64,000 nt of DNA from Alphaproteobacteria bacterium (GTDB taxonomy: Bacteria; Pseudomonadota; Alphaproteobacteria; SP197): positions 1,754 through 65,753 of the forward strand of contig OZ241369.1 of NCBI GenBank assembly GCA_965200215.1, in the 5' to 3' direction. The position numbers were made by a program, and so were the translations under genes. This document shows, one piece after another, positions 6,126-25,015 of this stretch (positions within the stretch are counted from its first letter, which is position 1; the number at the start of each line of letters is the position of its first letter). Below the pieces are notes generated by a model. That model ran no database searches, had not been told where the DNA came from, and saw only the letters and a list, made by a program, of their open reading frames with translations.

Positions 6126-6138
6126 ACCCCCACGCCCG

Positions 6139-7372: not shown

Positions 7373-7882
7373 ATGGCCATCCTGCCCATCGTCCACGCTC
7401 CCGATCCGCGCCTGCGGGCCGTCTCCGCGCCCGTGACGGCGGTGGACGCATCCGTCCGCCGGCTGATGGAGGACATGCTGGCCACCATGTATGCCGAGCC
7501 CGGCATCGGCCTGTCGGCGGTGCAGGTGGGCGTGCCGAAGCGCGTCGTCGTGGTCGATGTCGGCGAGGGGCCGCTGCGCATGGCCAACCCGCGCATCCTG
7601 CGCTTTTCGCCCCAAACGGCGCTCCTCGAGGAAGGCTGCCTGTCGCTGCCCGAACAGTTCGCCGCCATCGAGCGCCCGGCCGCCATCGAGCTGCGCTATC
7701 TCGACCAGCGCGGCGAGCCCCGCCGGCTGGCGGCCGACGGCCTGCTGGCCCGCTGCATCCAGCACGAGCTCGACCATCTCGAAGGCGTGCTGCTCATCGA
7801 CCGCCTTTCGGCGCTGAAGCGCGGCATCGTCCTGCGCCGCCTCGCCAAGCGGAAGAAGGCGCAGCTGCGGGAGAGCGCGTGA
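7373..7882 (+). CDS. def: Peptide deformylase.
   Basis: GIGLSAVQVG, EGCLSLP and QHELDHLEG metal-binding motifs. Confidence 0.95.
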   Translation: MAILPIVHAPDPRLRAVSAPVTAVDASVRRLMEDMLATMYAEPGIGLSAVQVGVPKRVVVVDVGEGPLRMANPRILRFSPQTALLEEGCLSLPEQFAAIERPAAIELRYLDQRGEPRRLAADGLLARCIQHELDHLEGVLLIDRLSALKRGIVLRRLAKRKKAQLRESA

Positions 7883-8787: not shown

Positions 8788-8791
8788 AGCC

Positions 8792-9541
8792 GTGGCCCGC
8801 TACCGCCTGTTGCTGGAATACGACGGCGCCGGCTTTGTCGGCTGGCAGCGCCAGCGCCACGGCCCCTCCATCCAGCAGGCCCTGGAGCGCGCCTTCCACG
8901 CCTTCTGCGGCCAGGCGGCGGTGCCGGTGGCCGCCGGGCGCACCGATGCCGGCGTCCACGCCCTGGGCCAGGTGGCGCATGTCGATCTGGACCGCGAATG
9001 GCCCGCCGCCACCATCCGCGACGCCCTCAACAGCCATCTGCGGCCCGCCGCCATCGTCGTCCTGGCGGCCGCCAGGGTCGGCGACCGCTTCCACGCCCGC
9101 TTCGACGCCGTGGAACGGGCCTATCTCTACCGCATCGCCGCCCGCCGGGCGCCGCCGGCCCTGCAGCGCGGCCGCGTCTGGCACCTGCCGCGCCCGCTCG
9201 CCGCCGGGGCCATGCACGAGGCGGCGCAGCGCCTGGTGGGCCGCCACGACTTCAGCACCTTCCGCGCCGCCCAGTGCCAGGCGGCCTCGCCGCTGAAGAC
9301 CCTGGACGCGCTGACGGTGGCCGCCGAGGGCTGCGAGGTCGTGGTCCGCGCCCGCGCCCGTTCCTTCCTGCACCGCCAGATGCGCTCCATGGTCGGCGCG
9401 CTGCGGCTGGTAGGCGAGGGCCGGTGGAGCGCCGACGACCTCGCCGCCGCCCTCGCGGCCCGCGACCGCCGCGCCTGCCCCCCCATAGCCCCCGCCCAAG
9501 GCCTCTACCTGGCCGCCATCCGCTACCAAAGCGAAAGGTGA
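8792..9541 (+). CDS. truA: tRNA pseudouridine(38-40) synthase TruA (GTG start).
   Basis: [18 protein letters not shown] and the catalytic GRTDAGVHA motif. Confidence 0.9.
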
Positions 9542-9544
9542 GGG

Positions 9545-9765
9545 ACCCGCCGGGCACCGCCGCCAGCCACACGCCTCTGGAAGCGCCGAACCCCCACCGC
9601 CAGGCACCGCCCCCACCACCGGCGCCCCCCTGGGAGCGCCGGCGTCCCGCCGGCAAACGGGCCGCAGGCCCGTCGACGCACCACACGCCCGCCGCCAGGC
9701 ACCACCCCCACCACCGCTCTCACTAACCACTAACCACTGACCACCGGCCACCGGCCACTACCCCC
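9545..9765 (+). repeat. Dispersed intergenic repeat copy, + orientation.
   Basis: CCCTGGGAGCGCCGGCGTCCCGCCGGCAAACGGGCCGCAGGCCCGTCGACGCACC plus a CTCACTAACCACTAACCACTGACCACCGGCCAC tail. Confidence 0.8.
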
Positions 9766-9766
9766 C

Positions 9767-10609
9767 TCAATCCCGCAACAGCTCGTTGATCGAGGTCTTG
9801 GCCCGGGTCCCCTCGTCCACGCGCTTGATGATCACGGCGCAGGCCAGCGAAGGCTCGCCCGCCCTGCGGGGCGGCAGGGCGCCGGGCACCACCACCGAGA
9901 AGGCCGGCACCCGCCCGCGATGCACCTCGCCCGTGGCCCGGTCCACGATCCTGGTGGAGGCGCCGATGAACACCCCCATCGAGAGGACGGCCCCGCGCTC
10001 CACCACCACCCCTTCCACCACCTCGCTGCGGGCGCCGATGAAGCAGCCGTCCTCCACGATCACCGGCGCCGCCTGCAACGGCTCCAGCACGCCGCCCAGC
10101 CCGGCGCCGCCGGAGATGTGGCAGTTCTCGCCCACCTGGGCGCAGCTTCCCACCGTCGCCCAGCTGTCGATCATGCTGCCGGCCCCGACATGGCCGCCGA
10201 TATTGACGAAACAGGGCATCAGCACCACCCCCGGCGCGATATAGGCGCCGCGCCGCACGATGGCGTGAGGCACGGCGCGAAAGCCGGCGGCCGCGAAGCG
10301 GGTCTCGTCCCAGCCCTCGAATTTGTTGTCCACCTTGTCGAACCAGCCGGCCCGGTTGCCGGGCGCGCCGGGGATCACCCTGGTCGGCGTGAGCCGGAAG
10401 GAGAGCAGCACCGCCTTCTTCAGCCACGGGTTGAGCGTCCAGCCCGTCCCGGCGGGCTCGGCGACGCGCCGCCGCCCGCTGTCGAGCAGTTCCAGGGCCT
10501 CGCCGACCGCCTCGCGGGCAGGGCCTCCGCTCTGCGGGGTCAGGCTTTCGCGCGCTTCCCAGGCATCGTCGATGGCCGCTTCGAGGTCGCGATGAGGATG
10601 GTCGGGCAT
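9767..10609 (-). CDS. dapD: 2,3,4,5-tetrahydropyridine-2,6-dicarboxylate N-succinyltransferase.
   Basis: [17 protein letters not shown] start and left-handed beta-helix hexapeptide repeats; typical alphaproteobacterial DapD length of 280 aa. Confidence 0.88.
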
Positions 10610-10621
10610 GGCTGTCTCGCG

Positions 10622-10835
10622 CGCTGACTCACCGCCCGGCGGATAACACCCCCACCCCCCCCTGGCAACGCCCCCAGGCACCGCCGCCAGCCACACGCCC
10701 CCTGGGAGCGCCGGCGTCCCGCCGGCAACGGGCCGGAGGCCCGTCAACGCACCACCTGCCCACCGCCAGGCACCACCCCCACCCCCCGCTCTCACTAACC
10801 ACTAGCCACCGGCCACTGACCACCGGCCACCCACA
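10622..10835 (+). repeat. Dispersed intergenic repeat copy, + orientation.
   Basis: CCCTGGGAGCGCCGGCGTCCCGCCGGCAACGGGCCGGAGGCCCGTCAACGCACC plus CCGCTCTCACTAACCACTAGCCACCGGCCACTGACCAC. Confidence 0.8.
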
Positions 10836-10893
10836 CGCTTGGCCACCCGCCCCCCATACGCTAAGGTGGCGAACGAGACCGGCGGAAACCGTC

Positions 10894-11262
10894 ATGCCGA
10901 AGATCAACCCCCTCGTCACCCTGTTCCTCGCCATCGCGGCCATCAACGTCGGCCTGTTCGGCTGGCAGCGGGCCGACATGACCGCCCTGGAAACCCGCAT
11001 CGAGGCGCGCTTCGCCGCCCTGGAGATCCGCATCGAGGAACGCTTCAACCGCATCGAAGCCGGACAGACGGAGTTGCGCGAGCGCATGGCCCGCATCGAG
11101 GCCGGACAGACGGAGTTGCGCGAGCGCACGGCCCGCATCGAGGCCGGGCAGTCGGAGCTGCGCGAGCGCATGGCGCGCATCGAAGGCACGGTTGCCGGCG
11201 CCCTGGCCCGCCCCGACCGCCTGGCCCAGGCGCCCACCGAAGAAGCCGAAGCCGCCAACTGA
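10894..11262 (+). CDS. Small N-terminally membrane-anchored coiled-coil protein with tandem RIEAGQxELRER repeats. Paralog of 45751..46107.
   Basis: TM helix (VTLFLAIAAINVGLFGW) followed by three RIEAGQ(T/S)ELRER(M/T)A repeats. About 90% identical to the ORF at 45751. Shares an LRERMARIEG motif with the ORF at 22519. Confidence 0.6.
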   Translation: MPKINPLVTLFLAIAAINVGLFGWQRADMTALETRIEARFAALEIRIEERFNRIEAGQTELRERMARIEAGQTELRERTARIEAGQSELRERMARIEGTVAGALARPDRLAQAPTEEAEAAN

Positions 11263-11264
11263 AA

Positions 11265-11445
11265 GGCGCCCCCCCCAGGACCGACCGAGCGTCACGCCTC
11301 CTGGGAGCGCCGGCGTCCCGCCGGCAAACGGGCCGCAGGCCCGCCAACGCACCGTCCGCCCGCCGCCAGGCACCGCCTCTGCCACCGCCCCATGCCGGCG
11401 CTTCCAGGCCGCGGCTGGCGGCGAGAGTGTCGCCCCGGCGCGACC
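11265..11445 (+). repeat. Dispersed intergenic repeat copy, + orientation.
   Basis: CCTGGGAGCGCCGGCGTCCCGCCGGCAAACGGGCCGCAGGCCCGCCAACGCACC. Confidence 0.75.
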
Positions 11446-11447
11446 CG

Positions 11448-11753
11448 CTACGACGGCAGCAACCTGTCGGCGGCGAGGATGGCGAAGACCACCCCGACCA
11501 GCGCCAGATAGATGCGCGCCTCCTGCCGCGCCATGGCGGCGGTGAGGCGGCCTTCGAGGTGAGCGAGGTCGGCTTTGGTGGCGAAGTCCTTGATGTCCGC
11601 CTTGGTGGCCAGCTCACCATGGCCGGTGACGGCCGCCTGCGCTGTCACCTCGGCGACGGCCTCCGCCTGGCGCCGCTCCATGCCGGCCGCTTCCAGATCG
11701 CGGGTGGCGGCGAGGGTGTCGAAGGCGGCAATGGTCATTGGCGATGGCTCCAT
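11448..11753 (-). CDS. DUF1640-like small coiled-coil protein with a C-terminal TM anchor.
   Basis: AFDTL...AGMERRQAEAVAEV...LATKADIKDFATKADLAHLEGRL then the hydrophobic tail YLALVGVVFAILAA. Paralog of 23275..23568. Confidence 0.6.
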   Translation of the reverse strand: MEPSPMTIAAFDTLAATRDLEAAGMERRQAEAVAEVTAQAAVTGHGELATKADIKDFATKADLAHLEGRLTAAMARQEARIYLALVGVVFAILAADRLLPS

Positions 11754-11759
11754 GCAAGG

Positions 11760-11989
11760 CGGTCACGACAGCTTGCCCCGTGGCAGCAGCGCAAGCAAGC
11801 CGAAAACAAGACCACTTCCCCCGCCACCCACCACCCGGTGCCCCTGGCACACTACCCGCCACACGCCCCCTGGGAGCGCCGGCGTCCCGCCGGCAACGGG
11901 CCGCAAGGCCCGCCAACGCACCACACGCCCGCCGCCAGGCACCACCACCATTCCCCGCTCTCACTAACCACTAGCCACTGGCTACTGGC
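11760..11989 (+). repeat. Dispersed intergenic repeat copy, + orientation.
   Basis: CCCTGGGAGCGCCGGCGTCCCGCCGGCAACGGGCCGCAAGGCCCGCCAACGCACC plus CTCACTAACCACTAGCCACTGGCTACTGGC. Confidence 0.75.
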
Positions 11990-14900
11990 TTACCAGCTCA
12001 TACGCAGTTCCAGGCCCAGTCCGTGGCTCACAGCGGGGTGTTCGCTGCGGGTGGCTTCGATCTTCAGGCCCAGGGCGGTGCCCAGCGCCAGGCGCTGGCC
12101 CAGGCTGTAGCGGCGCTCGTCGCCGCCCAGGGCCAGGCCGCCATAGGGCGTCAGCGTGCCGGCCTCGCCCCAGGCCGCCAGGCCGTAGCCCAACTCGCCC
12201 TCCAGGCGACCGCCGCCCTCGCCGCCGACGCCGTCGCGCGAGGCCATGCCTTCCTCCCACAGCCGCGCAAGCCCGCTGCCGGAAGCGCCCCAGGCCGGCG
12301 ACAGCGACAGCGACAGGCCGCGCCCGTCGCCGCCCGCGTCCATATGCAGGCTGCCGGACGCGCCCCATTCCTCCACATCGCTGCCATGCGCCACCAGGCT
12401 GCGACCCGATACCGACGCCGACAGCCCGGCCGCGGCGTCCGACCAGGCCAGCCCGCCGCCCAGTTCCACGCCCACGCCGGTGGCGCCGTCGCCATCGTCC
12501 CAGCGCAGACCCGCCTCCAGCGACGGCTCCAGCAGACGACCGCCCCGCAGCGCCCAGTTCCAGCTGCCCACCGTCGCCAGCCGCACCCGCCGCGTCGAGA
12601 CGCTCACCCCGGCAATCGCCTCGCCGTTGTCGGCCAGCACATAGCGGGTCGCCTCCGCAGAGGCACGCATCTCCACGGCGGAATCCCCGTCGCCATAGAC
12701 CGGCACCGCACCGCCCAACGCGCCGGCCACAAGCCGCCCGTCGCTCTCCTGCCACTCATAGCGGTCGAAGATGCCCGTGTCGGCGATCCGGACCTCGCCA
12801 TGGCCGTAGCCCAGCGCCGCCCACAGACGCTCGCCGCCGCCACCCGACCAGCCCAGATAGGGATGCACCGCCACCATCCGATGCTCGTGGTCGCCCTCGA
12901 TGGCCCCCGCGTCCTCGTCGCTGCGGTCCGTGTAGTCGATGGCGCTCTCGAAGCGCGAGACCGCCACGCCGCCCATGACGCCGCCGCCCAGGGCCACATC
13001 CGCCCCCACATGGGCGGAAAACAGCTTCCCGGACCACGACAGCAGGCCGTCCTCGCGCGACAGGTCGCGCCAGTCGCCGCCGCCCCACATCACCACCGCC
13101 GAGCCGCCGCCGCCGGAACCGTCCTCGCCCTCGCCGCCCAGGGCCAGCGCGAAGCTCTCGCCGCCCACCAGCTCGCGCCACGAACCCTCGCCGTCCTCCA
13201 GGGCCTCGCCCTTCGAGCGCAGAAAGTCCGCCGCAGCCGCAAGGCCCTGCTCCATCGCGCCGCCCCCCGAACCGCCGCCGCCGGGGGCTCCCAGGCGGGC
13301 GCCGATGGCGTCCAGCGCGCTGCCCCACATGGCACGCGACAACTCCGGCAGAACCGAGCGGTTCACCGCCGCCAGACGCTCGCGAGCCGCAGCCAGCGCC
13401 GGGACCACCTCGATGGTGAACTCCAGCGTCACAGGCTGGCCATCGACGTCGGTCGCCGTCCAGGTGTAGCGCGTGACCGCCATCTCCGCCGTCGGCGCCC
13501 CCGACAACCGATCACCACCCTCGTCGCACTCGAAGCCCTCGCACATGACACCGTCCGGAAGCGCCGGCGACAGCGCGTATATGAACGGCGCGTCGCCCGT
13601 CGCCGCCGGCAGCGTCTCCGGGGCGATCTCCTCGCCCACCGTCCAGGAAAGCGCCTCCGGGAAGTCCACCGCGAAGGACGGCGCCGTGTCCGCGTAGCCC
13701 ACCGCAAACGGCGAGAACGACATCACCCTGTCCGCGCACACCTGCGCGCCCTCGTCTCTCGATCCCTCCACCCGTTCCCCGCGACGCAACAGGAGCAGCG
13801 TCCGGCCCTTTGCCGCCTCGCGCACATCTGGGGTCACCGGCAGGCACAGCCGCAGGCCACCCGGCGGCACGGGAGAAACCGCGATATTCATCACCACCCG
13901 CGCCGCTGCCGGCCCCAGGCTGTGTTCGCTTCCCGCCGCCTCCGCCGCCCGGTCCTCAGGCCACGGCGAGAACGTCAGCGCCAGCTCCGGACCCGGCCCC
14001 ACACCCCTCAGATCGACCTCGATCCTCGTCGTCACCCCGGAGGCCACCGTCAACCCGGGGGCCACCGTCACCTTCACCAGCCGGTCCTCGACGCGGTAGC
14101 TCGTCGTGCCCGCATCGGCGGCCACCGCGATCCGGGTCGCCCCCGCCACCGACGCCGCGACATCCAGGCTCGCGGATACCCCTCCGTAATCGCCGCCCGA
14201 TGCCCGGTGCATCACCGACAGCGCCGCCGCGTAGCCGTCCGCCCCCACCGACGACCCCACCGTCACCGTCACCGCCTGCGCCCGGTTCCAATCCGCCATC
14301 GTGAAGGTCAGCGACGAAGGCGCGGCCCGCACATCGCCCGCCGCCGCGACCGTCACCGTCACCGGCCCCGTGGGCTGCGAGTTCAGCGCCACCGTGTAGC
14401 TCGCAGCTCGCGACCCCGACGCCACCTCCACCACGCTGGCGGTCGTGCCGGCGGCGAGGAACAGCAACCCCTTCTCGTCGTCGTCCACGATGGTCAGCTT
14501 CGCGTCGTCGTCGTCCACGTCCACGATCTCGTTGTTCATCGTGGCCTGGGCGTTCACCGCCGTCCCGGAGACCGTCACCGTCTTGTTATCCGCGTCCACG
14601 GCGTTGTTCACCGCCGTCACCGTCACCAGGCCGGTGCTGGTGGTCTCCCCCGCCGCGATGGTCAGCGTCGCCGCCGCGCTCAGCGTGAAGTCCCCCGCCA
14701 CCGCAGGGGCGACCGGCGCCGCCGTCACCGTCACCACCGTCTCCGCAACCGACGGGTGCTCCTTCACCGCCGTCACCGTCGCCACACCGCCATCCTCCGA
14801 GATCGAGGAAGGCGCCAGCGCCAGCGTCACCTCCGGCGGCTCGTCGTCGGTCGTGGTCCCGTTCACGTCCACGGGGTCGAGGCTGTCGTAGTCGGCATCG

Positions 14901-17900
14901 CCGCTCGACGGGGCCAGGCGCACCCGCCAAGGCTGGGGGCCATCGTGGAGGTTGTCCTTCACCCCCGTCACCGTCACCGTCTGCGCCGTCTCCCAGTTCC
15001 CCGTCGTGAACACCAGCGACGAAGGCGCGACCGTCCCCTCGCTCGTATCCAGGCTGGTCACCGCCACCGTCACCGCCGCCGAAGGCTGCGTCTGCAACGC
15101 CACCGTGAAGGTGGCCTGCCCCCCCGCCTCCGTCGCCTGGCCGCTCACCGCGCTCTCGGACAGACCGAACTCGTCGTCGCGGATGGTAAGCGTCGCGTTG
15201 GAAGGCGCCGCCACCCCCCGGCCCCCCGCCGCCGTCGCCGACACCGTCACCCGCTTGCGCCCCTCCGCAGCGGTGTTGTCCACCGAGGTGATCGTCACCA
15301 CGCCGGCGCTGGTCGTCGCCCCCGCCGCGATGGTCAGCGTGTTGGTCGAACTCAGCGTGAAGTCCCCCGCCACCGCCGGGGAGACCGGCGCCGCCGACAC
15401 CGTCAGCGTCGTCGCCACCGTCGTCGGGTGCGACAGCACCGCCGTCACCGTGCTCACCTCCCCGTTCTCCAGGATCGCCGCCGGGGCCAGCGCCAGCGTC
15501 GCCGTCGCCGTCGCCTCGTCGTCGGTCAGCGTCAGCGTCACGGCGGAAGGCGCCGCAACCCCGTTGCCGCCGGTCGCCGTCGCCGAGACCGTCACGCTCT
15601 TGTTCGCCGCGTCCACGGCGTTGTCGTTGCCCCGCACCGTCACCGCCCCGGTGCTGGTGGTCGCCCCCGCCGCGATGGTCAGGGTCGCCGCCGTGCTCAG
15701 CGTGAAGTCGCCCGCCACCGCCCCCGTCGAGGCCACCGCCGCCACCGTCAGCGTCGTCGCCACCGTCGTCGGATGCGACAGCGTCGCCCTCACCGTGCTC
15801 ACGCCGCCGTTCTCCGAGATCGAGGCCGGCCCCAGCGCCAGCGCCGCCGTCGGCAGCGCGTCGTCGTCGGCGAGCGTCAGCGACGCCCCCGTCACCGCCC
15901 CCGCCCCCTGGCCGTTGGTCAGCGCCGCCGTCACCGTCACGCTGCGACCCGCGCTGCCCTGATAGACGTCGTCGTCCACCGCCGTCACCAGCGCCGTATC
16001 CGAGGCCGCCGTGGTGGCGCCCGCCGCGATGACGATGGTCGCGTCCGTCCCCGCCGCGTAGGCACCGGCAACCGCCTGAACCGTCACCGTCGAGGGCTCC
16101 GACGACAGGCCCGACAGCGTCGCCGTCACCGTCGCGACGCCGCCGTTCTCGGAAACCGACGCCGGCATCACCGAAAGCGTCGCCCCCGGCGCCGCCTCGT
16201 CGTCCTCCAGCGTCAGCGTCGCGCCCGTCACCGTCATGGTCCGGCTGTCGGCCGCCGCCCGGGCGTTGGTCACCGTCGCCGTCACCGTCGCCGTCCGGTT
16301 CGGCTCGTCGGTCGTGTTGTCCACCGCCGTCACCAGCACCGTGTCCGTGGGCGCCGCCGTCGCCTCCGCCGGGATGACGATGGTGGCGTCCGTCCCCACC
16401 GTGAACGACCCGGAGGCCGCGCCCACCGTCAGCGTCGTCGCCGCCCCCGACCCATGCGAAAGCCGCGCCGTCACCGTCGCCACGCCGCCCATCTCCGCCA
16501 CCGAAGACGGCGACAGCGCCATCGTCACCCCCGGCGCCCCGTCGTCGTCGGTGGTGGTCACGTCCTGGTCCACCTCCACGCTGTCGCCGTTGTAGTTGGG
16601 GTCGCTGCTCGACGGGTCCAGGCGCACCTGCCAGGTCACCGTCCCGTCGTCGATCGTGTCCTGAACCCCCGTCACCGTCACCGTCTGCGGCGTGCTGTAA
16701 GCCCCCGGCGCGAAGGTCAGCGCCGGCGGCGACACCGTCCCCTCGCTCGCATCCCGGCTCGTCACCGCCACCGTCACCGCCGCCGTCGGCACCGTGTTCA
16801 GCCGCACCGTGAAGGTGGACGTCCCGCCCGCCTCCGTCGCCTGGCCGCTCACCGCGCTCTCCGACAGCCCGAACTCGTCGTCGCGCAGGATCAGCGTCGC
16901 GTTGGACGGGTTCTCCACCCCCCGGCCCCCCGCCGCCGTCGCCGACACCGTCACCTGCTTGTTCCCCGTGGCCACGGCGTTGTCCACCGCCGTCACCGTC
17001 ACCACGCCGGTGCTGGTGGTGGCGTTGGCCGCGATGGTCAGCGTCGTCGTCGAACTCAGGCTGAAGTCCGCCGCCACCGCGCCGGTCCCCGCCGCCGCCG
17101 CCACCGTCAGCGTCGCCGCCTCGGTGGTCGGATGCGACAGCCGCGCCGTCACCGTGCTCACCCCGCCGTTCTCCGTAATCGTCGACGGATCCAGCACCAG
17201 ACTCGCCGTCGCGTCGTCGTCGTTGGTCAGCGTCAGCACGGTGAGCCCCGGGTTCTGTACGCCGTTGCCGCCCGTCGCCGTCGCCGAAAGCCGCAACAGC
17301 TTGTCGGCCGCGTCCACGTTGTTGTCGACGCCCGTCACCGTCACCAGCCCCGTGCTGGTCCGCGAACCCGCCGCGACGGTCAGCGTCGTCCCCGACTGCG
17401 TGAAGTCGCCCGCCACCGCGCCCGACGTCGCCACCGCCGTCACCGTCACCGTCACCGTCACCGCCTCGCTCGACTTGCCCGAAAGCCCCGCCAGCTGCGC
17501 CGTTATCGTGGCGATGCCGCCGTTCTCCGAGATCGAACTGGCAAGGGGGTCGATCAACAGCGACGCCGTCGGCAGGTTCTCGTCGTCGGTGATCGTCAGC
17601 GACGCCCCCGTCACCGAACCCGCCCCCTGGCCGTTGGTCAGCGTCCCCGTCACCGTCGCCGAACGCCCCGCGTTGCCATGGTGGAGGTCGTCGTCCACCA
17701 CCACGATCAGCGCCGTATCCGAGGCCGCCGTGGTGGCGCCCGCCGCGATGACGATGGTCGCGTCCGCCCCCGCCGTATAGGCGCCGGAGACCGCCGTCAC
17801 CGTCACCGTCGAGGGCTCCGACGACGGATGCGACAGCGTCGCCGTCACCGTCGAGACGCCGCTGGGCTCCGCGATCGACGCCGGGTTCACCGCCAGCGTC

Positions 17901-20900
17901 ACCCCCGGCCCCGCGTCGTCGTCGGCGATCGCCAGCGTCACGTCGGGCGGGTCGTTGGTCAGGTTGAGGCTGTCGGCAGCCGTTCCCGAGACCGTCACCG
18001 ACTTGTCCGGCGCGTCCGTGGTGTTGTTCACCGCCGTCACCGTCACCAGCCCCGCGCTGGTGGTCGCGTTGGCCGCGAAGGTCAGCGTCCTCGCCGTGCT
18101 CAGGCTGAAGTCCCCCGCCACCGCGCCGGTCCCCGCCGCCGCCGCAACCGTCACCGTCACCGCCACGCTCGAGGTCCGGTCCAGCGTCGCCGTCACCGTC
18201 GCCACACCGCCGTTCTCCGCGATCGACGCCGGGTCCAGCGCCAGCGTCGTCTGCGGCGTGTCGTCGTCGGTGATGGTCAGCGTCCGGTTGGCCGGGTTCG
18301 CCACGCTGTTGCCGCCGGCCGCCGTCCCCGAGACCGTCACCTGTATGCTGCCCGTGGTCCCCGTATCGTCCACCGCCGTCACCGTCACCACACCGGCGCT
18401 GGTCGTCGCGCCCGCCGCGATGGTCAGCGTCGCCGCCGTGCTCAGGCTGAAGTCCGCCGCCGTCGCGCCCGTCCCCGCCGCCGCCCCAACCGTCACCGTC
18501 ACCGCCTCGCTCGACTTGCCCGACAACCCCGCCGTCACCGTGCTCACGCCGCCGTTCTCCGAGATCGAGGTGGAAGACAGCGCCAGACTCAACGTCGGCA
18601 GCGTCTCGTCGTCGGTCAGCGTCAGCGACCCACCCGTCACCGCCCCCGCGCCCTGGCCGTTGGTCAGCGCCGCCGCCACCGTCACCGAACGCCCCGCGCT
18701 CCCCTGGTGAATGTCGTCGTCCACCGCCGTCACCGTCGTCGTATCCGTGGTCACCGTGAAGCCCGCCGCGACGGTGAGCGTCGCGTTCGCAGCCACCGTG
18801 TAATCCCCCACAACCGCCGTCACCGTCACCGTCGAAGGCTCCGACGACGGGCGCGACAGCACCACCGCCACCGACGCCACGCCCCCGTTCTCCGAAACCG
18901 AAGACGGAGCCAGGAACAGCACCGCACCCGTCGCCGGGTCGTCGTCGGTGATCGCCAGCGTCGCGCCCGTCACCGCCATGGTCGTCGAATCCGCCGCCGC
19001 CCGGTCGTTCGTCACCGCCGCCGTCACCGTCGCCGTCCGGTCCGGCGCGTCGGTCACATTGTCCACCGCCGTCACCAGCACCGTGTCGGAAGCCGCCGTC
19101 GTCTCGCCCGCCGCGATGACGATGGTCGCGTCCGTCCCCACCGTGAAGGCCCCCGTCACCGCCGCCACCGTCAGCGTCGTCGCCGCCCCCGACCCATGCG
19201 AAAGCCGCGCCGTCACCGTCGAAACACCGCCCATCTCCGAAACCGAAGACGGGTCCAGGGCCAGCGTCACACCCGGCGGCCCGTCGCCGTCGGTGGTCGT
19301 CACGTCCACATCCACATTGGCGAGGCCGTTGTAGTCGATATCCCCGCTCGCCGGGTCCAGGCGCACCTGCCACGTCACGTCCGCGTCGTCGGTCGAGTCC
19401 TGGACGCCCGTCGCCGTCACCGTCTGCGCCGTGTCCCAGCCCCCCGCCCCCGTCGCCGTCGTGAACGTCAGCAACGAAGGATCCACCGTCCCCTCGCTCG
19501 TATCCAGGCTCGCGACCGCCACCGTCACCGCCGCCGAAGGCTCCGTGTTCAACCGCACCGTGAACGTGGCCTGCCCGCCCGTCTCCGTCACCGTCCCGCT
19601 CACCGCGCCCACGGCCAGCCCGAATTCATCGTCGCGCAGGATCAGCGTCGCGTCGGCCGGGGCCGCCAACATGCCCCCCCCCGCCGCCGTCGCCGAAACC
19701 GTCACCCGCTTGCGCCCCTGCGCATTGTTGTTGTCCACCGCCGTCACCGTCACCAGCCCCGTGCTGGTCGTGTCGCCGGCCGCGATGGTCAGCGTCGTGG
19801 TCGAACTCAGGCTGAAGTCCGCCGCCACCGCCGGCGACACCGGCGCCGCCGTCACCGTCAGCGTCGCCGCCGCCGTCGTCGGGTTCGACAGCCGCGCCGT
19901 CACCGTGCTCACCTCGCCGTTCTCCAGGATCGAGGCCGGGTCCAGCACCAGCGTCGCCGTCGCGTCGTCGTCGTCGGTCAGCGTCAGCGTCGCGTCCGGC
20001 GGGTCCGCCACGCCGGTGCCCCCCGCCGACGTCCCCGTAATCGTCACCGTCTTGGTCGCGGTCCCGATGTCCACGTTGTTGTCCACGCCCGTCACCGTCA
20101 CCAGCCCCGTGCTGGTCGTCGCCCGCGCCGCGATCGTCAGCGTTGTCCCCGTCAGCGTGAAATCGCCCGCCACCGCCCCCGTCGAGGCCACCGCCGCCGC
20201 CGCCACCGTCACCGTCACCGCCTCGCCCGACTTGCCCGACAGCGTCGCCGTCACCGTGCTCACCCCGCCGTTCTCCGAGATCGTGTCCGCCGACATCGGG
20301 TCCGGCTCCGACAGCGCCAGCGCCACCGTCGGCAGAATCGTCTCGTCGTCGGTGCGCGTCAGCGTCGCGTCCGCCGGGTTCGGCACGCCGTTGCCCCCGG
20401 CCACCGTCCCCGAAATCGTCACCCTGCTGCCCGCGCTCCCCTGATAGGCGTCGTCGTCCACCGACGTCACCGTCACCACGCCCGTGCTCGTCGTCGCGTT
20501 CGCCGCGATCGTCAGCGTCGTCCCCGCCTGCGTGAAGTCGCCCGCCGCCGCGCCGGTCCCCGCCGCCGCCGCCACCGTCACCGTCGCCGCCTCCGTCGTC
20601 GGATACGACAGCGTCGCCGTCACCGTCGAAAGGCCGCCGTTCTCCGCCACCGTCGCCGGGTCCGGCACCAGCGTCACCGCCAGCACGTCGTCTTCGGTAA
20701 TCGTCAGGGTGGCGCTCAGGTCGGCGAGCCGCCGCCCGACCGGGGCCGTGGTCCGCACGGCAGCCGGGGCCGTCCGGACCGTCACCGACTTGCTGAACGG
20801 CCTGTGAACCATGTTGTCCACCGCCGTGATCGTCACCAGCCCCGTGTTGACCGTCGCCCCCGCCGGGATGATCACTCCCGGCTGCGACAGCGTGAAGTCC

Positions 20901-22141
20901 GCCGCCACCGTGTTCGTGTCCCCCGCCACCGCTTGCAGGCCCACCGTCACCGCCGCGCTCGCCGCCGTCGTCAGCGTCGCCGTCACCGTCGAGACGCTGC
21001 CCTCCGCGATCGAGGTCGGGTTCAGCACCACCTTCACATACGGCTCGTCGTCCGGGATGGTCAGCGTCACGCTCGCCGGGTCCACCGCCCCGCCGCTCGG
21101 CGTCACGCTTCCCGAAACCGTCACCGTCTTGGCGGCCGCGACCACGTTGTTGTTCACCGCCGTCACCGTCACCGTGCCGGTGCTGGCCGTCGCCCCCGCC
21201 GGGATGGTCAGCGTCGTCGCCGTGCTCACCGTGAAGTCGCCCGCCACCGCCGGCGACACCGGCGCCGCCGTCACCGTCACCGTCACCGGCCGCACCGGCG
21301 TCTTGCTCAGCGTCGCCCTCACCGTCGCCACCCCGCCGTTCTCCGCGATCGAGGCCGGCGACAGCGACAGCGTCGTCCGCGGCTGCGAACCCGTCGCCCC
21401 CACGATCGCCTGGTTGGTGGAGGTCACGGTCAGGCCGCCGGAATGGGCGCCGGGCGCCACCTGCACGCGGAAGGCCCGGTCGCCGCTGAGCGCCGTCGAC
21501 CCGCTGTAGGAGAGCGTCACCGTCGCCGTCGTGCCGCCGCTCGTGGCCGACGCGCCGGTGATGCTCAATCCCGCGATCGCCGGCGTGGCGCTCACCGTGA
21601 AGTGGGAGGCGGCCACGCTGCTGCCGTACGTCTGGCCGTTCAGCTCCACATCCAGCGTCGCGTTGTTCAGGTTCCCCCACGTCAGCCACGCCCGGTTCGA
21701 GGACACGATCTTCGCCACGCTGCCATCGACCTTGTGGCCCGCCTGGTTGGTCACCGCGGCATGGTCGCGGTTGACGTTACCGAATCCGAAGGACCTGTAA
21801 GCGGGGCCGCCGATCGAGTTTTGCGGAATGGAGATGCCGTCGGCGTCGACGTCGCCCGCCTGCACCGTGTAGCTGAATTGGGAGTTTGTCCTCCGGACGG
21901 TGTACCCGTGGCTGATGTACGCCCGTCGCGTGTTGGCGCCGATGGTGATGTTCATATAGATGGTGGTGAAAGAGCCACCGGAGACGCCGAAGACCTGCCC
22001 GTGGTTGAGCTGGGTGGTGATGGTCTCGCCGACGCCGTAGGTGTCGCCGCTGGCCGGCGTGGAGGTGATGACGGGGTTCGCAAAAGCCGGCCCCACCCCC
22101 AACAACACCAACCCCACCCCCAACACCAAAGCCCGAACCAC
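11990..22141 (-). CDS. Giant (~3380 aa) type Va autotransporter adhesin. Signal peptide, about 25 tandem Calx-beta-like roughly 100-aa repeats, a putative Ig/cadherin-like domain and a C-terminal beta-barrel translocator.
   Basis: ORF 11990..22912. Signal-peptide-like RALVLGVGLVLLGVGPAFA with an in-frame GTG at 22141. Repeats of the type AGDFTL...TLTIAAGATTSTGxVTVTAVDNxxD...VTVSxTAxGGxGVxxPxxATLTLTDDD. The C-terminus has Gly-rich beta-strands ending ...GLGLELRMSW (aromatic terminal residue, typical of the autotransporter barrel). The exact start is uncertain. Confidence 0.85.
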   Translation of the reverse strand: MVRALVLGVGLVLLGVGPAFANPVITSTPASGDTYGVGETITTQLNHGQVFGVSGGSFTTIYMNITIGANTRRAYISHGYTVRRTNSQFSYTVQAGDVDADGISIPQNSIGGPAYRSFGFGNVNRDHAAVTNQAGHKVDGSVAKIVSSNRAWLTWGNLNNATLDVELNGQTYGSSVAASHFTVSATPAIAGLSITGASATSGGTTATVTLSYSGSTALSGDRAFRVQVAPGAHSGGLTVTSTNQAIVGATGSQPRTTLSLSPASIAENGGVATVRATLSKTPVRPVTVTVTAAPVSPAVAGDFTVSTATTLTIPAGATASTGTVTVTAVNNNVVAAAKTVTVSGSVTPSGGAVDPASVTLTIPDDEPYVKVVLNPTSIAEGSVSTVTATLTTAASAAVTVGLQAVAGDTNTVAADFTLSQPGVIIPAGATVNTGLVTITAVDNMVHRPFSKSVTVRTAPAAVRTTAPVGRRLADLSATLTITEDDVLAVTLVPDPATVAENGGLSTVTATLSYPTTEAATVTVAAAAGTGAAAGDFTQAGTTLTIAANATTSTGVVTVTSVDDDAYQGSAGSRVTISGTVAGGNGVPNPADATLTRTDDETILPTVALALSEPDPMSADTISENGGVSTVTATLSGKSGEAVTVTVAAAAVASTGAVAGDFTLTGTTLTIAARATTSTGLVTVTGVDNNVDIGTATKTVTITGTSAGGTGVADPPDATLTLTDDDDATATLVLDPASILENGEVSTVTARLSNPTTAAATLTVTAAPVSPAVAADFSLSSTTTLTIAAGDTTSTGLVTVTAVDNNNAQGRKRVTVSATAAGGGMLAAPADATLILRDDEFGLAVGAVSGTVTETGGQATFTVRLNTEPSAAVTVAVASLDTSEGTVDPSLLTFTTATGAGGWDTAQTVTATGVQDSTDDADVTWQVRLDPASGDIDYNGLANVDVDVTTTDGDGPPGVTLALDPSSVSEMGGVSTVTARLSHGSGAATTLTVAAVTGAFTVGTDATIVIAAGETTAASDTVLVTAVDNVTDAPDRTATVTAAVTNDRAAADSTTMAVTGATLAITDDDPATGAVLFLAPSSVSENGGVASVAVVLSRPSSEPSTVTVTAVVGDYTVAANATLTVAAGFTVTTDTTTVTAVDDDIHQGSAGRSVTVAAALTNGQGAGAVTGGSLTLTDDETLPTLSLALSSTSISENGGVSTVTAGLSGKSSEAVTVTVGAAAGTGATAADFSLSTAATLTIAAGATTSAGVVTVTAVDDTGTTGSIQVTVSGTAAGGNSVANPANRTLTITDDDTPQTTLALDPASIAENGGVATVTATLDRTSSVAVTVTVAAAAGTGAVAGDFSLSTARTLTFAANATTSAGLVTVTAVNNTTDAPDKSVTVSGTAADSLNLTNDPPDVTLAIADDDAGPGVTLAVNPASIAEPSGVSTVTATLSHPSSEPSTVTVTAVSGAYTAGADATIVIAAGATTAASDTALIVVVDDDLHHGNAGRSATVTGTLTNGQGAGSVTGASLTITDDENLPTASLLIDPLASSISENGGIATITAQLAGLSGKSSEAVTVTVTVTAVATSGAVAGDFTQSGTTLTVAAGSRTSTGLVTVTGVDNNVDAADKLLRLSATATGGNGVQNPGLTVLTLTNDDDATASLVLDPSTITENGGVSTVTARLSHPTTEAATLTVAAAAGTGAVAADFSLSSTTTLTIAANATTSTGVVTVTAVDNAVATGNKQVTVSATAAGGRGVENPSNATLILRDDEFGLSESAVSGQATEAGGTSTFTVRLNTVPTAAVTVAVTSRDASEGTVSPPALTFAPGAYSTPQTVTVTGVQDTIDDGTVTWQVRLDPSSSDPNYNGDSVEVDQDVTTTDDDGAPGVTMALSPSSVAEMGGVATVTARLSHGSGAATTLTVGAASGSFTVGTDATIVIPAEATAAPTDTVLVTAVDNTTDEPNRTATVTATVTNARAAADSRTMTVTGATLTLEDDEAAPGATLSVMPASVSENGGVATVTATLSGLSSEPSTVTVQAVAGAYAAGTDATIVIAAGATTAASDTALVTAVDDDVYQGSAGRSVTVTAALTNGQGAGAVTGASLTLADDDALPTAALALGPASISENGGVSTVRATLSHPTTVATTLTVAAVASTGAVAGDFTLSTAATLTIAAGATTSTGAVTVRGNDNAVDAANKSVTVSATATGGNGVAAPSAVTLTLTDDEATATATLALAPAAILENGEVSTVTAVLSHPTTVATTLTVSAAPVSPAVAGDFTLSSTNTLTIAAGATTSAGVVTITSVDNTAAEGRKRVTVSATAAGGRGVAAPSNATLTIRDDEFGLSESAVSGQATEAGGQATFTVALQTQPSAAVTVAVTSLDTSEGTVAPSSLVFTTGNWETAQTVTVTGVKDNLHDGPQPWRVRLAPSSGDADYDSLDPVDVNGTTTDDEPPEVTLALAPSSISEDGGVATVTAVKEHPSVAETVVTVTAAPVAPAVAGDFTLSAAATLTIAAGETTSTGLVTVTAVNNAVDADNKTVTVSGTAVNAQATMNNEIVDVDDDDAKLTIVDDDEKGLLFLAAGTTASVVEVASGSRAASYTVALNSQPTGPVTVTVAAAGDVRAAPSSLTFTMADWNRAQAVTVTVGSSVGADGYAAALSVMHRASGGDYGGVSASLDVAASVAGATRIAVAADAGTTSYRVEDRLVKVTVAPGLTVASGVTTRIEVDLRGVGPGPELALTFSPWPEDRAAEAAGSEHSLGPAAARVVMNIAVSPVPPGGLRLCLPVTPDVREAAKGRTLLLLRRGERVEGSRDEGAQVCADRVMSFSPFAVGYADTAPSFAVDFPEALSWTVGEEIAPETLPAATGDAPFIYALSPALPDGVMCEGFECDEGGDRLSGAPTAEMAVTRYTWTATDVDGQPVTLEFTIEVVPALAAARERLAAVNRSVLPELSRAMWGSALDAIGARLGAPGGGGSGGGAMEQGLAAAADFLRSKGEALEDGEGSWRELVGGESFALALGGEGEDGSGGGGSAVVMWGGGDWRDLSREDGLLSWSGKLFSAHVGADVALGGGVMGGVAVSRFESAIDYTDRSDEDAGAIEGDHEHRMVAVHPYLGWSGGGGERLWAALGYGHGEVRIADTGIFDRYEWQESDGRLVAGALGGAVPVYGDGDSAVEMRASAEATRYVLADNGEAIAGVSVSTRRVRLATVGSWNWALRGGRLLEPSLEAGLRWDDGDGATGVGVELGGGLAWSDAAAGLSASVSGRSLVAHGSDVEEWGASGSLHMDAGGDGRGLSLSLSPAWGASGSGLARLWEEGMASRDGVGGEGGGRLEGELGYGLAAWGEAGTLTPYGGLALGGDERRYSLGQRLALGTALGLKIEATRSEHPAVSHGLGLELRMSW

Positions 22142-22149
22142 CCGCCCCC

Positions 22150-22515
22150 CCGGCAGCGCCAAACGCCCACCGCCAGGCACCGCCCAGGCAGCCCGCCTCC
22201 CGGCGACCGGCCACTGGCCACCGGCCCCCTGGGAGCGCCGGCGTCCCGCCGGCAACGGGCCGCCAGGCCCGCCAACGCACCACCGGCCACCGCCAGGCAC
22301 CAACCGAGCGTCACACCCACCGGCGAAGCCCGCCCCCGGCAGCGCCCAGCGCCCACCGCCAGGCACCGACCGAGCGTCACGCCCCCTGGGAGCGCCGGCG
22401 TTCCGCCGGCAACGGGCCGCCAGGCCCGCCAACGCACCGCAAGCCCACCGCCAGGCACCACCCAGGCAGCCCGCTCTCACCGGCCACTGGCTACCGGCGA
22501 CCGGCCACCGAACCC
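22150..22515 (+). repeat. Dispersed intergenic repeat, two or three core units, + orientation.
   Basis: Three GGGAGCGCCGGCG(T)TCCGCCGGCAACGGGCCGCCAGGCCCGCCAACGCACC-type cores, then CTCACCGGCCACTGGCTACCGGCGACCGGCCAC. Confidence 0.8.
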
Positions 22516-22518
22516 CCC

Positions 22519-22800
22519 TCACGCCGCCGCCGTCTCCGACTCCCGCGCCTGCCGAGACTCCCGCCGCAGGAACCCCTCGAACATCCCTTCGATCCGGGCC
22601 ATCCGCTCCCGCAACTTCGCCATCTCGCCGCGCACGGCTTCGAACTGCTGGCTCGTATCCTCCCGCAGCTCCTTGATCTCGCCGCGCAGTTCCCTCATCT
22701 CGCCGCGGCGCTCGCGGTTCAAGACCAGCGCCAGGCCAGCCAATGCCACGCCCACCGTGGCAATGCCGATCGGCTCCGGGATCATGCCCGCTCCTCCCAA
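22519..22800 (-). CDS. Small membrane-anchored coiled-coil protein (N-terminal TM, LRERMARIEG motif).
   Basis: MIPEPIGIATVGVALAGLALVL TM helix followed by the heptad-rich ELRGEIKELRED...KLRERMARIEGMFEG. Alternative start at 22785. Confidence 0.5.
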   Translation of the reverse strand: MGGAGMIPEPIGIATVGVALAGLALVLNRERRGEMRELRGEIKELREDTSQQFEAVRGEMAKLRERMARIEGMFEGFLRRESRQARESETAAA

Positions 22801-23274
22801 ACCAGGATGCGCAACCTACACCCCCGGCGCGCGCATTCCCAGGCGATAACGGCGCCGGAACCGGCATTCCGCCCCACCGGCTACCGCCCGCCCCCATCAC
22901 CGCCTCACCCATGCGCGGGGGGGGGGGGGGGGGTACAACGTCGGCCCGGCAGCGAACGGCGAAGCAAGAAAGCCCATAATCCCCTCACTCGGCAGCGCAA
23001 CGGCGGCTGCAACCCCTCATAGCCCACCCCCCGGCGATGTCAAGCCCGCCGTCAAGGTCAAGCACAGCATCAACCACCCGCCGCAAACACAAGCACCATA
23101 GCACAAAACCCCACCCCCAACCACCACCGCCCGGCAAGCCGCCAGGCCCGCCCACACACCGCTCCCCAAGCGCCACCCACCCACCGCCAGGCACCACCCC
23201 CAGCCACCCGCTCCCACGAACCACTAGCCGCTGGCTACCGGCCACGGGCCACTAGCCACCGGCCAACCCACCGC
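22801..23274 (+). repeat. Intergenic region with a poly-G18 tract (22916-22933) and a dispersed repeat copy (23040-23270), + orientation.
   Basis: 18 consecutive G at 22916-22933. CCGCCAGGCACCACC...CCACGAACCACTAGCCGCTGGCTACCGGCCAC tail. Confidence 0.75.
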
Positions 23275-23833: not shown

Positions 23834-24196
23834 TCAATGACTATCCAGATACCGGCGTATGTAACTCGCTCCCAGACCGACAATGGCGCCGCTCAAGACG
23901 GAGTTCTTTATGTCCTGCAATTCATCCGGGTTGAGCCAGTGCCATTTGTTTGGCGTCAGGAGGTGATATCCCAAGGTGGACACGGCCCCGGCGACGACGA
24001 TAAAAACCATCACCAGGAGAATCCACGTGCACAAGGCAAGGATTGTCCGGGACGTCTGATCCCGATAGTGTTCGCTCCGTCTTTTTTGCAGTTCTTGTTC
24101 TTCGGATTCCGCAAGGGAGTCCCCATGGGAGGAAGGAGCCGGCTGAGGCGGAACACGCTGCCGGCTTTCCGGAGGCTTATTCCCGCTCTTTTTCAT
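23834..24196 (-). CDS. Small (120 aa) membrane protein; candidate toxin partner (PanT-like) of the upstream Panacea-domain gene.
   Basis: ATG at 24196 (MKKSGNKPPES...) overlaps the upstream gene stop by 4 bp (ATGA). Hydrophobic segment ILALCTWILLVMVFIVVAGAVSTLGY. Low GC (~52%). The role is inferred from gene context only. Confidence 0.45.
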   Translation of the reverse strand: MKKSGNKPPESRQRVPPQPAPSSHGDSLAESEEQELQKRRSEHYRDQTSRTILALCTWILLVMVFIVVAGAVSTLGYHLLTPNKWHWLNPDELQDIKNSVLSGAIVGLGASYIRRYLDSH

Positions 24197-24690
24197 TCGC
24201 TTGCAGCCGCAAGTTCGGCAAAATGCTCCTCGATGAGCTCGTCGGGAATGATGGAGTTGCAGCCCGTTTGATGCCAGATCTGATGCCAGGGCGTCCCGCG
24301 CGCATGCGTGAGCTGCGACAGCTGGACACCCGAAAATTCGCAATAGACGTTGAACACCTGTCGGATCAGGTCTTCTTCCAGGGGATCGAAATCGCTATCC
24401 GGAAAGTCCTGGACGACGTTGACGGGTTTGCGTCCATAACGCTTCAGCCCGTGATATACATCCGGAATGACCGGACCGTATTTCCAGGCTTCGACGGGCT
24501 GCGCCGATAATGGGCGATGGTATAACCCGAGCATCCATCCGTGGCACAGATAGGTGAGCTTGATCAGTTGCAGAGGATCGCGGGGCTTGCCCCCATTGAT
24601 GCCCAGTCGGATCAGAGCGTTTGCGACGGCTCGAGAATCGTGCTTCCGAGAGTTGTGTTTCATGGCATAAAGGTCCGATGTTGGGAACAT
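24193..24690 (-). CDS. Panacea-domain (DUF4065, SocA/PanA-like) protein; putative antitoxin.
   Basis: LQLIKLTYLCHGWMLGLYHRPLSAQPVEAWKYGPVIPDVYHGLKRYG matches the DUF4065/Panacea consensus (KLqKLlYfaqgw...AWkyGPVvpevY). Low-GC island. Confidence 0.65.
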   Translation of the reverse strand: MFPTSDLYAMKHNSRKHDSRAVANALIRLGINGGKPRDPLQLIKLTYLCHGWMLGLYHRPLSAQPVEAWKYGPVIPDVYHGLKRYGRKPVNVVQDFPDSDFDPLEEDLIRQVFNVYCEFSGVQLSQLTHARGTPWHQIWHQTGCNSIIPDELIEEHFAELAAASE

Positions 24691-24834
24691 AAGCCGGGAA
24701 AGAACAAACGTTCCTTTAGGGAAAAGCGCTTTATGCTGGCATGATCATGGGCGAGCTGCCATTATGTTTCCTGGCTCCCCACAGACAGAGGCCGTCAGGA
24801 TAGGCCCCACCGCCGCGCTATGTCAAACTCTTCA

Positions 24835-25015
24835 TGCCGGCTCCCGAAGCCACCGCCCCCACCGCCCCCACCGCCCGCGCGCCCCTGGGAGCGCCGGCGT
24901 CCCGCCGGCAAACGGGCCGAAGGCCCGTCAACGCACCACCCGCCCACCGCCAGGCACCGCCCAAGCGTCACGCCCCCGGCGACCGGCCACTAGCCACTAA
25001 CCACTAGCCACTAAC
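24835..25015 (+). repeat. Dispersed intergenic repeat copy, + orientation.
   Basis: CCCTGGGAGCGCCGGCGTCCCGCCGGCAAACGGGCCGAAGGCCCGTCAACGCACC plus CCACTAGCCACTAACCACTAGCCACTAACC. Confidence 0.8.

Follow-up and report, generated by a model that had tools for sequence, protein, structure and literature searches.

How would a bacterium carry a highly repetitive protein of more than three thousand residues to its surface, how would it hold it there, and what might such a protein do? These questions are raised by a single minus-strand gene at positions 11990..22141 of a 64,000-nucleotide stretch of contig OZ241369.1 (assembly GCA_965200215.1), hereafter called the window. The gene product is likely, in our view, to be a monomeric, fibrillar surface protein of type V (autotransporter-like), and its source an uncultured Gram-negative bacterium of high GC content, probably an alphaproteobacterium. 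From the N-terminus to the C-terminus, it comprises a signal peptide, a distal head, an array of Calx-beta-fold modules, a spacer, an immunoglobulin (Ig)-like domain, a helical linker, and a C-terminal beta-barrel, and the best reading of this arrangement is that the protein is probably a Ca2+-stiffened fibrillar adhesin with a strain-variable tip. Taken alone, the gene encodes a large repetitive adhesin of broadly familiar architecture. The assignment to the autotransporters holds only in a modified form, in which the anchor belongs to a divergent, enlarged barrel family.

Gene model and start codon

The G+C content of the window is 72%, and either strand consequently contains long open reading frames (ORFs). 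Of these, two giant ones overlap the locus, namely an uninterrupted one at 11990..22912 on the minus strand and another at 12023..22849 on the plus strand. Translation of the minus-strand frame gave a coherent repetitive protein, with a G+C content at third codon positions (GC3) of 0.91. The plus-strand ORF, with its Arg/His/Pro-rich translation, was rejected as a shadow of the 72% GC gene. The ATG at 22912 was also rejected as a start codon, since its 257 extra codons (770 nt, in frame) are copies of an intergenic repeat, whose in-frame copies give the ORF its spurious 5' extension. In a survey of start codons, the GTG at 22141 was found immediately before MVRALVLGVGLVLLGVGPAFA, which is followed by NP. 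This GTG is the likely start because a signal peptide follows it directly and the DNA upstream is intergenic repeat.

The complete coding sequence of the giant surface protein accordingly runs from the GTG at 22141 to the stop codon at 11990-11992 (10,152 nt, 3,383 aa), which agrees with the coordinates given in an earlier note on this DNA and places the gene on the minus strand. The signal peptide proposed in the same note was also recovered as a Sec-type peptide at aa 1-21 (22079..22141, minus strand), straight after the GTG. Judged by inspection, its n-region is basic, its core is hydrophobic, its cleavage motif is A-x-A, and there is no extended signal-peptide region. An exact look-up of the 3,383-aa product returned no record, and the public gene call probably uses a different start.

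A divergent C-terminal barrel

The predicted anchor is a C-terminal outer-membrane beta-barrel at aa 3016-3383 (11993..13096, minus strand), recognized from an AlphaFold2 (AF2) model, hydrophobicity, Foldseek, and homologues. The model, built with 50 family sequences, has a predicted local distance difference test (pLDDT) value of about 90 and shows 18 DSSP strands over 366 aa, up to the terminal Trp. The alternating (dyad) hydrophobicity of the alignment columns backs this strand pattern independently of AF2. The protein ends in GLGLELRMSW, with a terminal aromatic beta-signal, and the beta-domains of BrkA, Hbp, EstA, and EspP were among the top Foldseek matches of the barrel. Ahead of the barrel lies a linker (aa 2915-3001; 13139..13399, minus strand), in which AF2 places two helices, the first of 37 residues, with a Gly-rich loop between them and a short strand after the second. 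The first helix (aa 2915-2951; model residues 36-72) has a pLDDT of 85-94 for residues 41-70, and the motif AR.RL...NE..LPEL.RA is conserved in three linker alignments of relatives.

A search with the last 504 aa identified 76 homologues, and seven of ten tested singly (34-55% identity) passed the autotransporter profile PF03797 with 27-54 bits, the gathering score being 26 bits. In two samples of the family, 23 of 50 and 11 of 33 members matched this profile. The barrel is tied to the autotransporters because these homologues pass PF03797, the copy in the window having no direct match. Type Va proteins such as BrkA, EspP, Hbp, and EstA share with this protein the Sec signal peptide, the passenger, the helical linker, the C-terminal barrel, and the terminal aromatic residue, in addition to the profile matches of its homologues and the Foldseek matches. 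They differ from it in having barrels of about 250-280 aa and 12 strands, whereas the present one has about 370 aa and 18 predicted strands; the linker with two helices and the lack of an extended signal peptide are further differences. An inverse autotransporter (type Ve) was rejected, since the barrel is at the extreme C-terminus. Intimin and invasin have an N-terminal barrel, in contrast to the C-terminal one found here and in all 150 family matches listed.

Several results stand in the way of a simple type V assignment. The last 504 aa had no match in Pfam or NCBIfam, including PF03797 and TIGR01414, even at E <= 10, and their comparison with solved structures by sequence and profile gave no barrel match, only a match of the Ig domain to SraP. 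In superpositions of the barrel, the best template modelling (TM) score against 12-stranded barrels was 0.56, and LptD and TonB-dependent receptors scored similarly. The PF03797 alignments in the homologues end at profile positions 201-218 of 255, leaving 154-181 residues to the C-terminus, and TIGR01414 recognized only one of 50 family members. The canonical autotransporter barrel has 12 strands and about 250-300 aa, whereas the AF2 model predicts 18 strands and a barrel about 120 aa longer. The helix itself is predicted with confidence, whereas its location inside the pore is conjectural. As for the passenger, it consists of Ig-like modules instead of the usual beta-helix, and sequence and profile searches of these modules against the PDB missed the solved Calx-beta domains. 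The binding of Ca2+, the exposure at the surface, and the adhesion are likewise putative.

A second explanation has somewhat less than an even chance in our estimation, namely that the barrel represents a separate class of larger outer-membrane anchors with 16-18 strands, which has only ancestry or local similarity in common with autotransporters and constitutes a new type V subtype. The passenger would then be exported with another topology or with help from BAM, the machinery for beta-barrel assembly, or the translocation and assembly module (TAM), and not by the type Va route. A unit of about 370 aa conserved in more than 5,000 cluster representatives, the high confidence of the 18-stranded model, the early end of the PF03797 alignments and the residues left over, the single TIGR01414 match, TM scores of no more than 0.56, and the presence of two helices and a strand ahead of the barrel instead of one helix all argue for such a class. 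Nevertheless, the strand count comes from a single AF2 model, the extra strands are not explained by internal duplication (hhalign of the barrel halves detected none), and the order of signal peptide, passenger, helix, C-terminal barrel, and terminal aromatic residue is the type Va architecture. Autotransporters with 14, 16, or 18 strands were looked for in the literature available, and no relevant description turned up, which does not prove that none exist.

The type V reading is thus retained with a changed anchor. The earlier note had proposed an autotransporter barrel, and of this proposal the C-terminal barrel and the terminal Trp were borne out and the homologues pass PF03797, whereas the window copy fails both PF03797 and TIGR01414 at E <= 10, a failure that by the criterion set in the note itself would refute the proposal. 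Related to the classical autotransporter barrel of 12 strands, the family is divergent from it and larger. If the barrel prediction is true, type V secretion would not be restricted to 12- and 16-stranded barrels, and a family of thousands would have been missed by the standard autotransporter models, with both Pfam and NCBIfam blind to the barrel in the window.

Calx-beta-fold modules in a nested array

The module hidden Markov model (HMM), the alignment, the identity matrix, AF2 with Foldseek, and Pfam together delimited 20 tandem Calx-beta-fold modules at aa 254-2554 (14480..21382, minus strand). The HMM detected them as 20 consecutive modules, with E-values of 1e-20 to 7e-49 for 17 of them, and this repeat structure is far beyond chance. 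The modules are 112-116 aa long, with DNA periods of 333-351 nt. At the membrane-proximal end of the array, the HMM also found a degenerate B-like module 21 (aa 2555-2660; 14162..14479, minus strand), in which the motif YTV.L...TV...LTF..W...TVTV, kept near the barrel across the barrel family, was recognized.

Three classes were resolved by the identity matrix. Class a contains modules 1-5, 9, 10, 12, 13, 17, 18, and 20, class c contains modules 7, 8, 11, 15, and 16, and class B contains modules 6, 14, and 19. The divergent type-B modules were placed by HMM, alignment, and identity matrix at 19277..19621 (module 6, FTVRLNTEPSAAVTVAV...), 16535..16867 (module 14), and 14837..15163 (module 19), all on the minus strand. 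Module 6 shares 66-68% amino acid identity with modules 14 and 19, as opposed to 31-41% with the type-a and type-c modules. A block of the order a-a*-B is present three times (modules 4-6, 12-14, and 17-19), and a six-module block is present twice, with modules 4-9 corresponding to modules 12-17, which lie 916 aa (2.75 kb) further on. At the highest level, a super-repeat has a first copy in modules 4-12 (aa 610-1643; 17213..20314, minus strand), located by the offsets of about 915 aa in chunked blastp and by blastn, and a second copy in modules 12-20 (14480..17572, minus strand), located by chunked blastp, the identity matrix, and blastn. Module 12 is common to both copies because the repeat is tandem, and the core block occurs for the third time (modules 17-19) within the second copy. 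The chunked queries define this self-comparison, as an unchunked blastp gave the identity match alone.

At the nucleotide level, blastn aligned the two super-repeat copies with 75.1% identity over 3,071 columns and gave a second self-match, offset by 13 modules, of 76.9% over 1,361 columns. Module pairs share 69-85% nucleotide identity, copies of the repeat families share 60-87% with their reference, and exact repeats within the gene reach 59 bp at most. The nested periodicity described in the earlier note is therefore real as a hierarchy, and its large block of about eight modules recurring about three times resolves into a three-module block in three copies and a six-module block in two copies 2.75 kb apart. 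Its estimate of about 25 modules of about 100 aa (300 bp) is replaced by 20-21 modules of 112-116 aa (about 340 bp), and its near-identical DNA repeats turned out to be 60-87% identical, with no exact repeat longer than the 59 bp given above.

The suggestion that these are Calx-beta modules was confirmed by Pfam and by fold. In the whole protein, Pfam detected Calx-beta (PF03160) with 41.9 bits at a cut-off of 27 and a LapA domain with 49 bits. The best PF03160 stretch is aa 1179-1294, which covers profile positions 3-119 of 119. Two stretches reached significance in Pfam, single modules being mostly at or below the threshold, and the type-B modules, three in number and without a Pfam match, form another divergent subclass. 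An AF2 model of module 1, with the 21 modules as the alignment, had a pLDDT of 92.9, and its top PDB matches in Foldseek were 3gin, 2dpk, and 3ead (NCX1 and CALX CBD1), with TM scores of 0.72-0.78. Searched by sequence against the PDB and Pfam, the modules, the head, and the spacer gave nothing significant except a weak match to 9xg1.

Acidic columns are conserved in the module alignment, with E14 in 20 of the 21 modules, D49 in 17, D77 in 14, and D111 and D112 in 19 each. The array as a whole is acidic (231 D+E versus 70 K+R), and the protein has four cysteines, none of which lies in aa 1-2765. The Calx-beta domains of NCX1 (CBD1 and CBD2) and Drosophila CALX (PF03160) are the best fold match and have these acidic positions and a motif logic in common with the modules, with E-N-x-G near the start, A-x-A-G-x-D-F/Y, V-D-D/N, and a terminal D-D-D/E. 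Set by eye and alignment against what we take to be the NCX1 CBD1 sequence, and not by a database result, E-N-G-G resembles E-N-C-G, A-G-D-F resembles A-G-S-D-Y, and T-D-D-D resembles F-D-D-D. The acidic CBD1 site that we presume to be D421 has no counterpart in the modules. The NCX1 and CALX domains differ from the modules in that their sequence similarity is marginal and in that the modules are bacterial, presumably extracellular, and arranged in a tandem of 20. Binding of Ca2+ by the modules at the acidic cluster is plausible.

Head, spacer, and Ig domain

The distal head (aa 22-253; 21383..22078, minus strand) has no Pfam or PDB match. It has 22 homologues (P0077-P0098), all of which are short stand-alone proteins (164-402 aa) and almost none of which has precomputed Pfam domains. 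The homology to them lies at aa ~63-235, with 33-45% identity. From these sequence comparisons, the head looks like an undescribed domain that may be used both alone and as an adhesin tip.

On the membrane-proximal side of the array, a variable spacer (aa 2661-2817; 13691..14161, minus strand) has no family matches and 55-71% nucleotide identity between alleles, and it carries two of the four cysteines of the protein (C2766 and C2802). It is followed by a cadherin-like Ig domain of the He_PIG type (aa 2818-2912; 13406..13690, minus strand), which was assigned by homology to the He_PIG region of the homologue P0003 (49% identity, E 4e-21). The window's own copy of this domain has no direct Pfam match, and the barrel-family profile matches the SraP cadherin-like domains (PDB 4m03). 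The Ig/cadherin-like domain that the earlier note had placed ahead of the anchor was in this way corroborated through P0003 and SraP.

Proposed mechanism

In the type V reading, Sec would take the unfolded protein across the inner membrane, and BAM would insert the barrel by means of the C-terminal beta-signal. The conserved helix would sit in the barrel pore, and the cysteine-free passenger would be threaded out from its C-terminus to its N-terminus. The modules would fold outside, with Ca2+ probably bound at E14, D49, D77, and D111-D112 near the module junctions, and their folding would both power export and make the stalk stiffer. At an assumed 4.5 nm or so for each Calx-beta module, the stalk is estimated to be roughly 80-100 nm long and would keep the variable, strain-specific head away from the cell. 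The protein most likely functions in adhesion, with a host or matrix molecule as the ligand and a marine sponge as the probable setting. Comparable tandem acidic arrays of beta-sandwiches, probably stiffened by Ca2+ and projecting a distal binding region, are known from LapA, MpIBP, SiiE, intimin, and invasin, and the weak Pfam match to the LapA domain adds to this likeness.

The barrel family and its connection with sponges

A search of the full library with the 374-aa barrel identified 6,542 cluster representatives at E <= 1e-3, including 5,050 at E <= 1e-10. Among the 150 matches listed, the match was at the C-terminal end in every case and nearly always spanned essentially the whole query, the lengths of the proteins ranging from 385 to 7,796 aa. 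In a scan of species-representative genomes, at least 436 loci were confirmed as relatives from at least 599 pattern matches. The best 80 of these loci were all in metagenome-assembled genomes (MAGs), often in several copies per genome, and 72 of the 80 encode a C-terminal W or F. The groups represented are Alpha- and Gammaproteobacteria, Nitrospirales, Nitrospinales, Thermodesulfobacteriota, Binatia, Latescibacterota, Acidobacteriota, and Gemmatimonadota.

A barrel family member was additionally found at 5746-7248 of a 12.8-kb contig binned as Dehalococcoidia (CATQGZ020000003.1). The usual view is that Dehalococcoidia have no classical outer membrane, and this occurrence reflects either a mis-binned contig or unexpected biology.

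Names of sponge symbionts occur among the best loci, including Poriferihabitaceae, Porisulfidus, Azotimanducaceae, and jk18x Ircinia bins. The first three appear in papers on sponge genomes and microbiomes (PMC12859430, PMC12988363, PMC12625764), and the jk18x bins are Ircinia symbionts (PMC9531527). Passengers of the family carry Calx-beta (13 of 33), fn3 (12 of 33), and He_PIG (14 of 33) domains, as well as cadherin-type domains, and PMC11706023 and PMC9531527 report Calx-beta, fn3, and cadherin as "eukaryotic-like" classes enriched in sponge symbionts. This large, barely annotated family seems to serve many marine-sponge-associated bacteria for the display of animal-like adhesion domains. 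Studies of sponge-symbiont eukaryotic-like proteins (ELPs) report the same enriched domain classes in similar host-associated MAG lineages, and, in the parts of PMC9531527 and PMC11706023 available, they count domains and describe no common C-terminal surface barrel. The route by which eukaryotic-like domains reach the symbiont surface is rarely addressed; a common C-terminal anchor is a testable route and a simple marker for surface-displayed ELPs.

The same family features bear on a more specific, and in our view rather unlikely, explanation, namely that the protein is a host-mimicking, eukaryotic-like display. The Calx-beta array would imitate or engage the Ca2+-dependent Aggregation Factor of sponges, which is rich in Calx-beta, and the symbiont would thereby be kept in the mesohyl or spared phagocytosis, with the head and the distal modules tracking host or strain specificity. 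The Calx-beta content of the Aggregation Factor, which is mentioned many times in papers on it, suggests such mimicry by analogy. The presence of the barrel in MAGs of many phyla with several sponge-symbiont names, the passenger domains named above, the head swapped between alleles, and a ratio of nonsynonymous to synonymous substitutions (dN/dS) of about 1.3 in the distal modules are consistent with it; paralogy among the repeats and the GC3 of 91% confound the last value. On the other side, the sponge origin of the window is read from its relatives and from contig names, the sample identifiers having given no match in the literature, the interaction with host proteins is a suggestion from a shared domain class, and Calx-beta arrays also occur in free-living marine bacteria. 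Equally tentative is a wider form that joins both departures from the type V reading. Here, an undescribed type V subtype, with an enlarged barrel of about 370 aa, 18 predicted strands, and a helical plug, would be spread over many phyla, apparently with a concentration in symbionts of marine sponges, as a common display platform for the eukaryotic-like domains of sponge symbionts, and the array in the window would mimic or bind the Aggregation Factor.

Giant adhesins secreted by type I systems (T1SS), of the RTX or LapA-like kind, are the usual context of bacterial Calx-beta and BIg arrays, and the 49-bit LapA match and the acidic Ig-like repeats would suit such a protein. This explanation is very improbable, being contradicted by the N-terminal Sec signal peptide, the C-terminal barrel with its terminal Trp, the lack of an RTX (HemolysinCabind) match in the whole-protein Pfam scan, the lack of a T1SS signal, and the finding of no ATP-binding cassette (ABC), membrane fusion protein (MFP), TolC, T1SS, or TpsB gene among the 20 flanking genes scanned.

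Alleles and integrity of the repeat array

An identical ArgB places the window on a contig of 696 kb with 34x coverage, whose name follows the style of a long-read metagenome assembler. A second allele (P0099, 3,418 aa) was found at 6001-16257 of another contig of the same assembly (ERZ25070167 ctg378720_7.18x_l, designated L085), which has a coverage of 7x compared with 34x for the window contig and on which the allele has the same position relative to dapD. The two alleles have an equal number of modules and almost no gaps across the array. Their heads (aa 1-253) are unrelated, with an amino acid identity of 26%, which is the random level. Modules 1-9 are 59-96% identical at the nucleotide level, aa 1329-1728 and 2329-2478 are 100% identical, the membrane-proximal aa 2629-2906 are 55-71% identical, and the linker and barrel (aa 2907 to the end) are mostly 91-100% identical. 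The crude dN/dS values between the alleles, subject to the confounding noted above, are 0.15 for the linker and barrel and 0.6-0.9 for most modules, with the distal modules highest. On these crude values, the barrel is under purifying selection. With a swapped head, fast-diverging distal modules, and a conserved barrel, the alleles offer a natural system for the study of strain-level surface variation in an uncultured symbiont.

The alleles are also mosaic, blocks of 100% nucleotide identity adjoining blocks of 60-85%. The gene content upstream is wholly different, with a TPR protein and a PIN/FitA toxin-antitoxin pair on L085 and argB, a HAD hydrolase, and a Panacea-domain gene in the window. 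The adhesin locus has the appearance of a hot spot at which strains recombine.

A third allele, 83-88% identical, was found on a short-read scaffold that ends inside module 18 and contains a gap of Ns. The difficulty with short reads that the earlier note had foreseen is thus partly borne out by this scaffold, whereas the predicted proneness to changes in repeat number is not supported, given the equal module count of two independent alleles. The presumed long-read version of the gene looks sound, and its repeat number is not obviously unstable. That the array is a collapsed or expanded assembly artefact, or the gene a pseudogene, is scarcely credible: the broken scaffold would fit an artefact, but the ORF is intact over 10 kb with a GC3 of 0.91, the repeats are 60-87% identical with 59 bp as the longest exact one, the second contig (7x versus 34x) gives the same module count with an almost gapless array, and the contig names suggest a long-read assembler.

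Intergenic repeats and other features of the window

The neighbourhood of the gene contains yidC (with its periplasmic domain), dapD, truA, def, argB, and engB. YidC with a periplasmic domain and the remaining housekeeping genes nearby point to the chromosome of a Gram-negative bacterium.

A repeat element of about 125-150 nt is conserved in the intergenic DNA of the window. It consists of two adjoining GC-rich hairpins, GCCGGCG-TCC-CGCCGGC and CGGGCC-GNAA-GGCCCG, followed by the 16-mer CCCACCGCCAGGCACC, then CCCGCTCTCAC, and then a variable tail of CCACTRR heptamers. With up to two mismatches, the 16-mer has 41 sites on the plus strand and none on the minus strand, against 0.46 expected. Examples on the plus strand are at 10, 6000, 9593, 9688, 10759, 11359, 11928, 22166-22459 (four sites), 23180, 23669, 24943, 29408, 31583, 34122-34168, 37890, 37986, 41750-41892, 43708, 45484-45601, 46233, 46349, 51720, 51812, 53134, 53224, 56392, and 57201. 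The strand bias is independent of the orientation of the neighbouring genes, and the GC skew is negative in 29 of 32 2-kb windows. On L085, the repeat changes its orientation from one side of the adhesin gene to the other, and this is also where synteny with the window breaks. The repeat matches no known RNA family in Rfam, and it could be a replication-oriented element resembling repetitive extragenic palindromic (REP) sequences or miniature inverted-repeat transposable elements (MITEs).

Two regions with this repeat flank the adhesin gene. Directly 3' of the stop codon, a copy at 11867..11989 with the twin GC-rich hairpins, folded on the mRNA strand, is a possible terminator or mRNA-stabilizing element. 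The upstream non-coding region at 22142..22912 contains at least four copies, which are in frame with the gene yet outside the protein. Between the adhesin gene and argB, the segment at 23900-25700 has a lower GC content (0.65) and copies of the repeat on its flanks. On the matching contig, it carries a gene with a SocA_Panacea domain, which is an antitoxin domain of toxin-antitoxin systems, as well as a small unknown gene and a HAD hydrolase gene.

The region at 33394-45508 contains a GT2 glycosyltransferase gene (33394-34119, plus strand) beside which six paralogues of 521-646 aa stand in tandem on the minus strand. Four of these paralogues match Glyco_transf_22, and the region has an unusually strong positive AT skew. 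Glyco_transf_22 is an Alg9-like mannosyltransferase family that is mainly eukaryotic. This region, 12 kb from the adhesin gene, may encode a periplasmic mannosylation system. Finally, the sole Rfam match in the window is a small signal recognition particle (SRP) RNA at 141-236 on the plus strand (RF00169, 62 bits).

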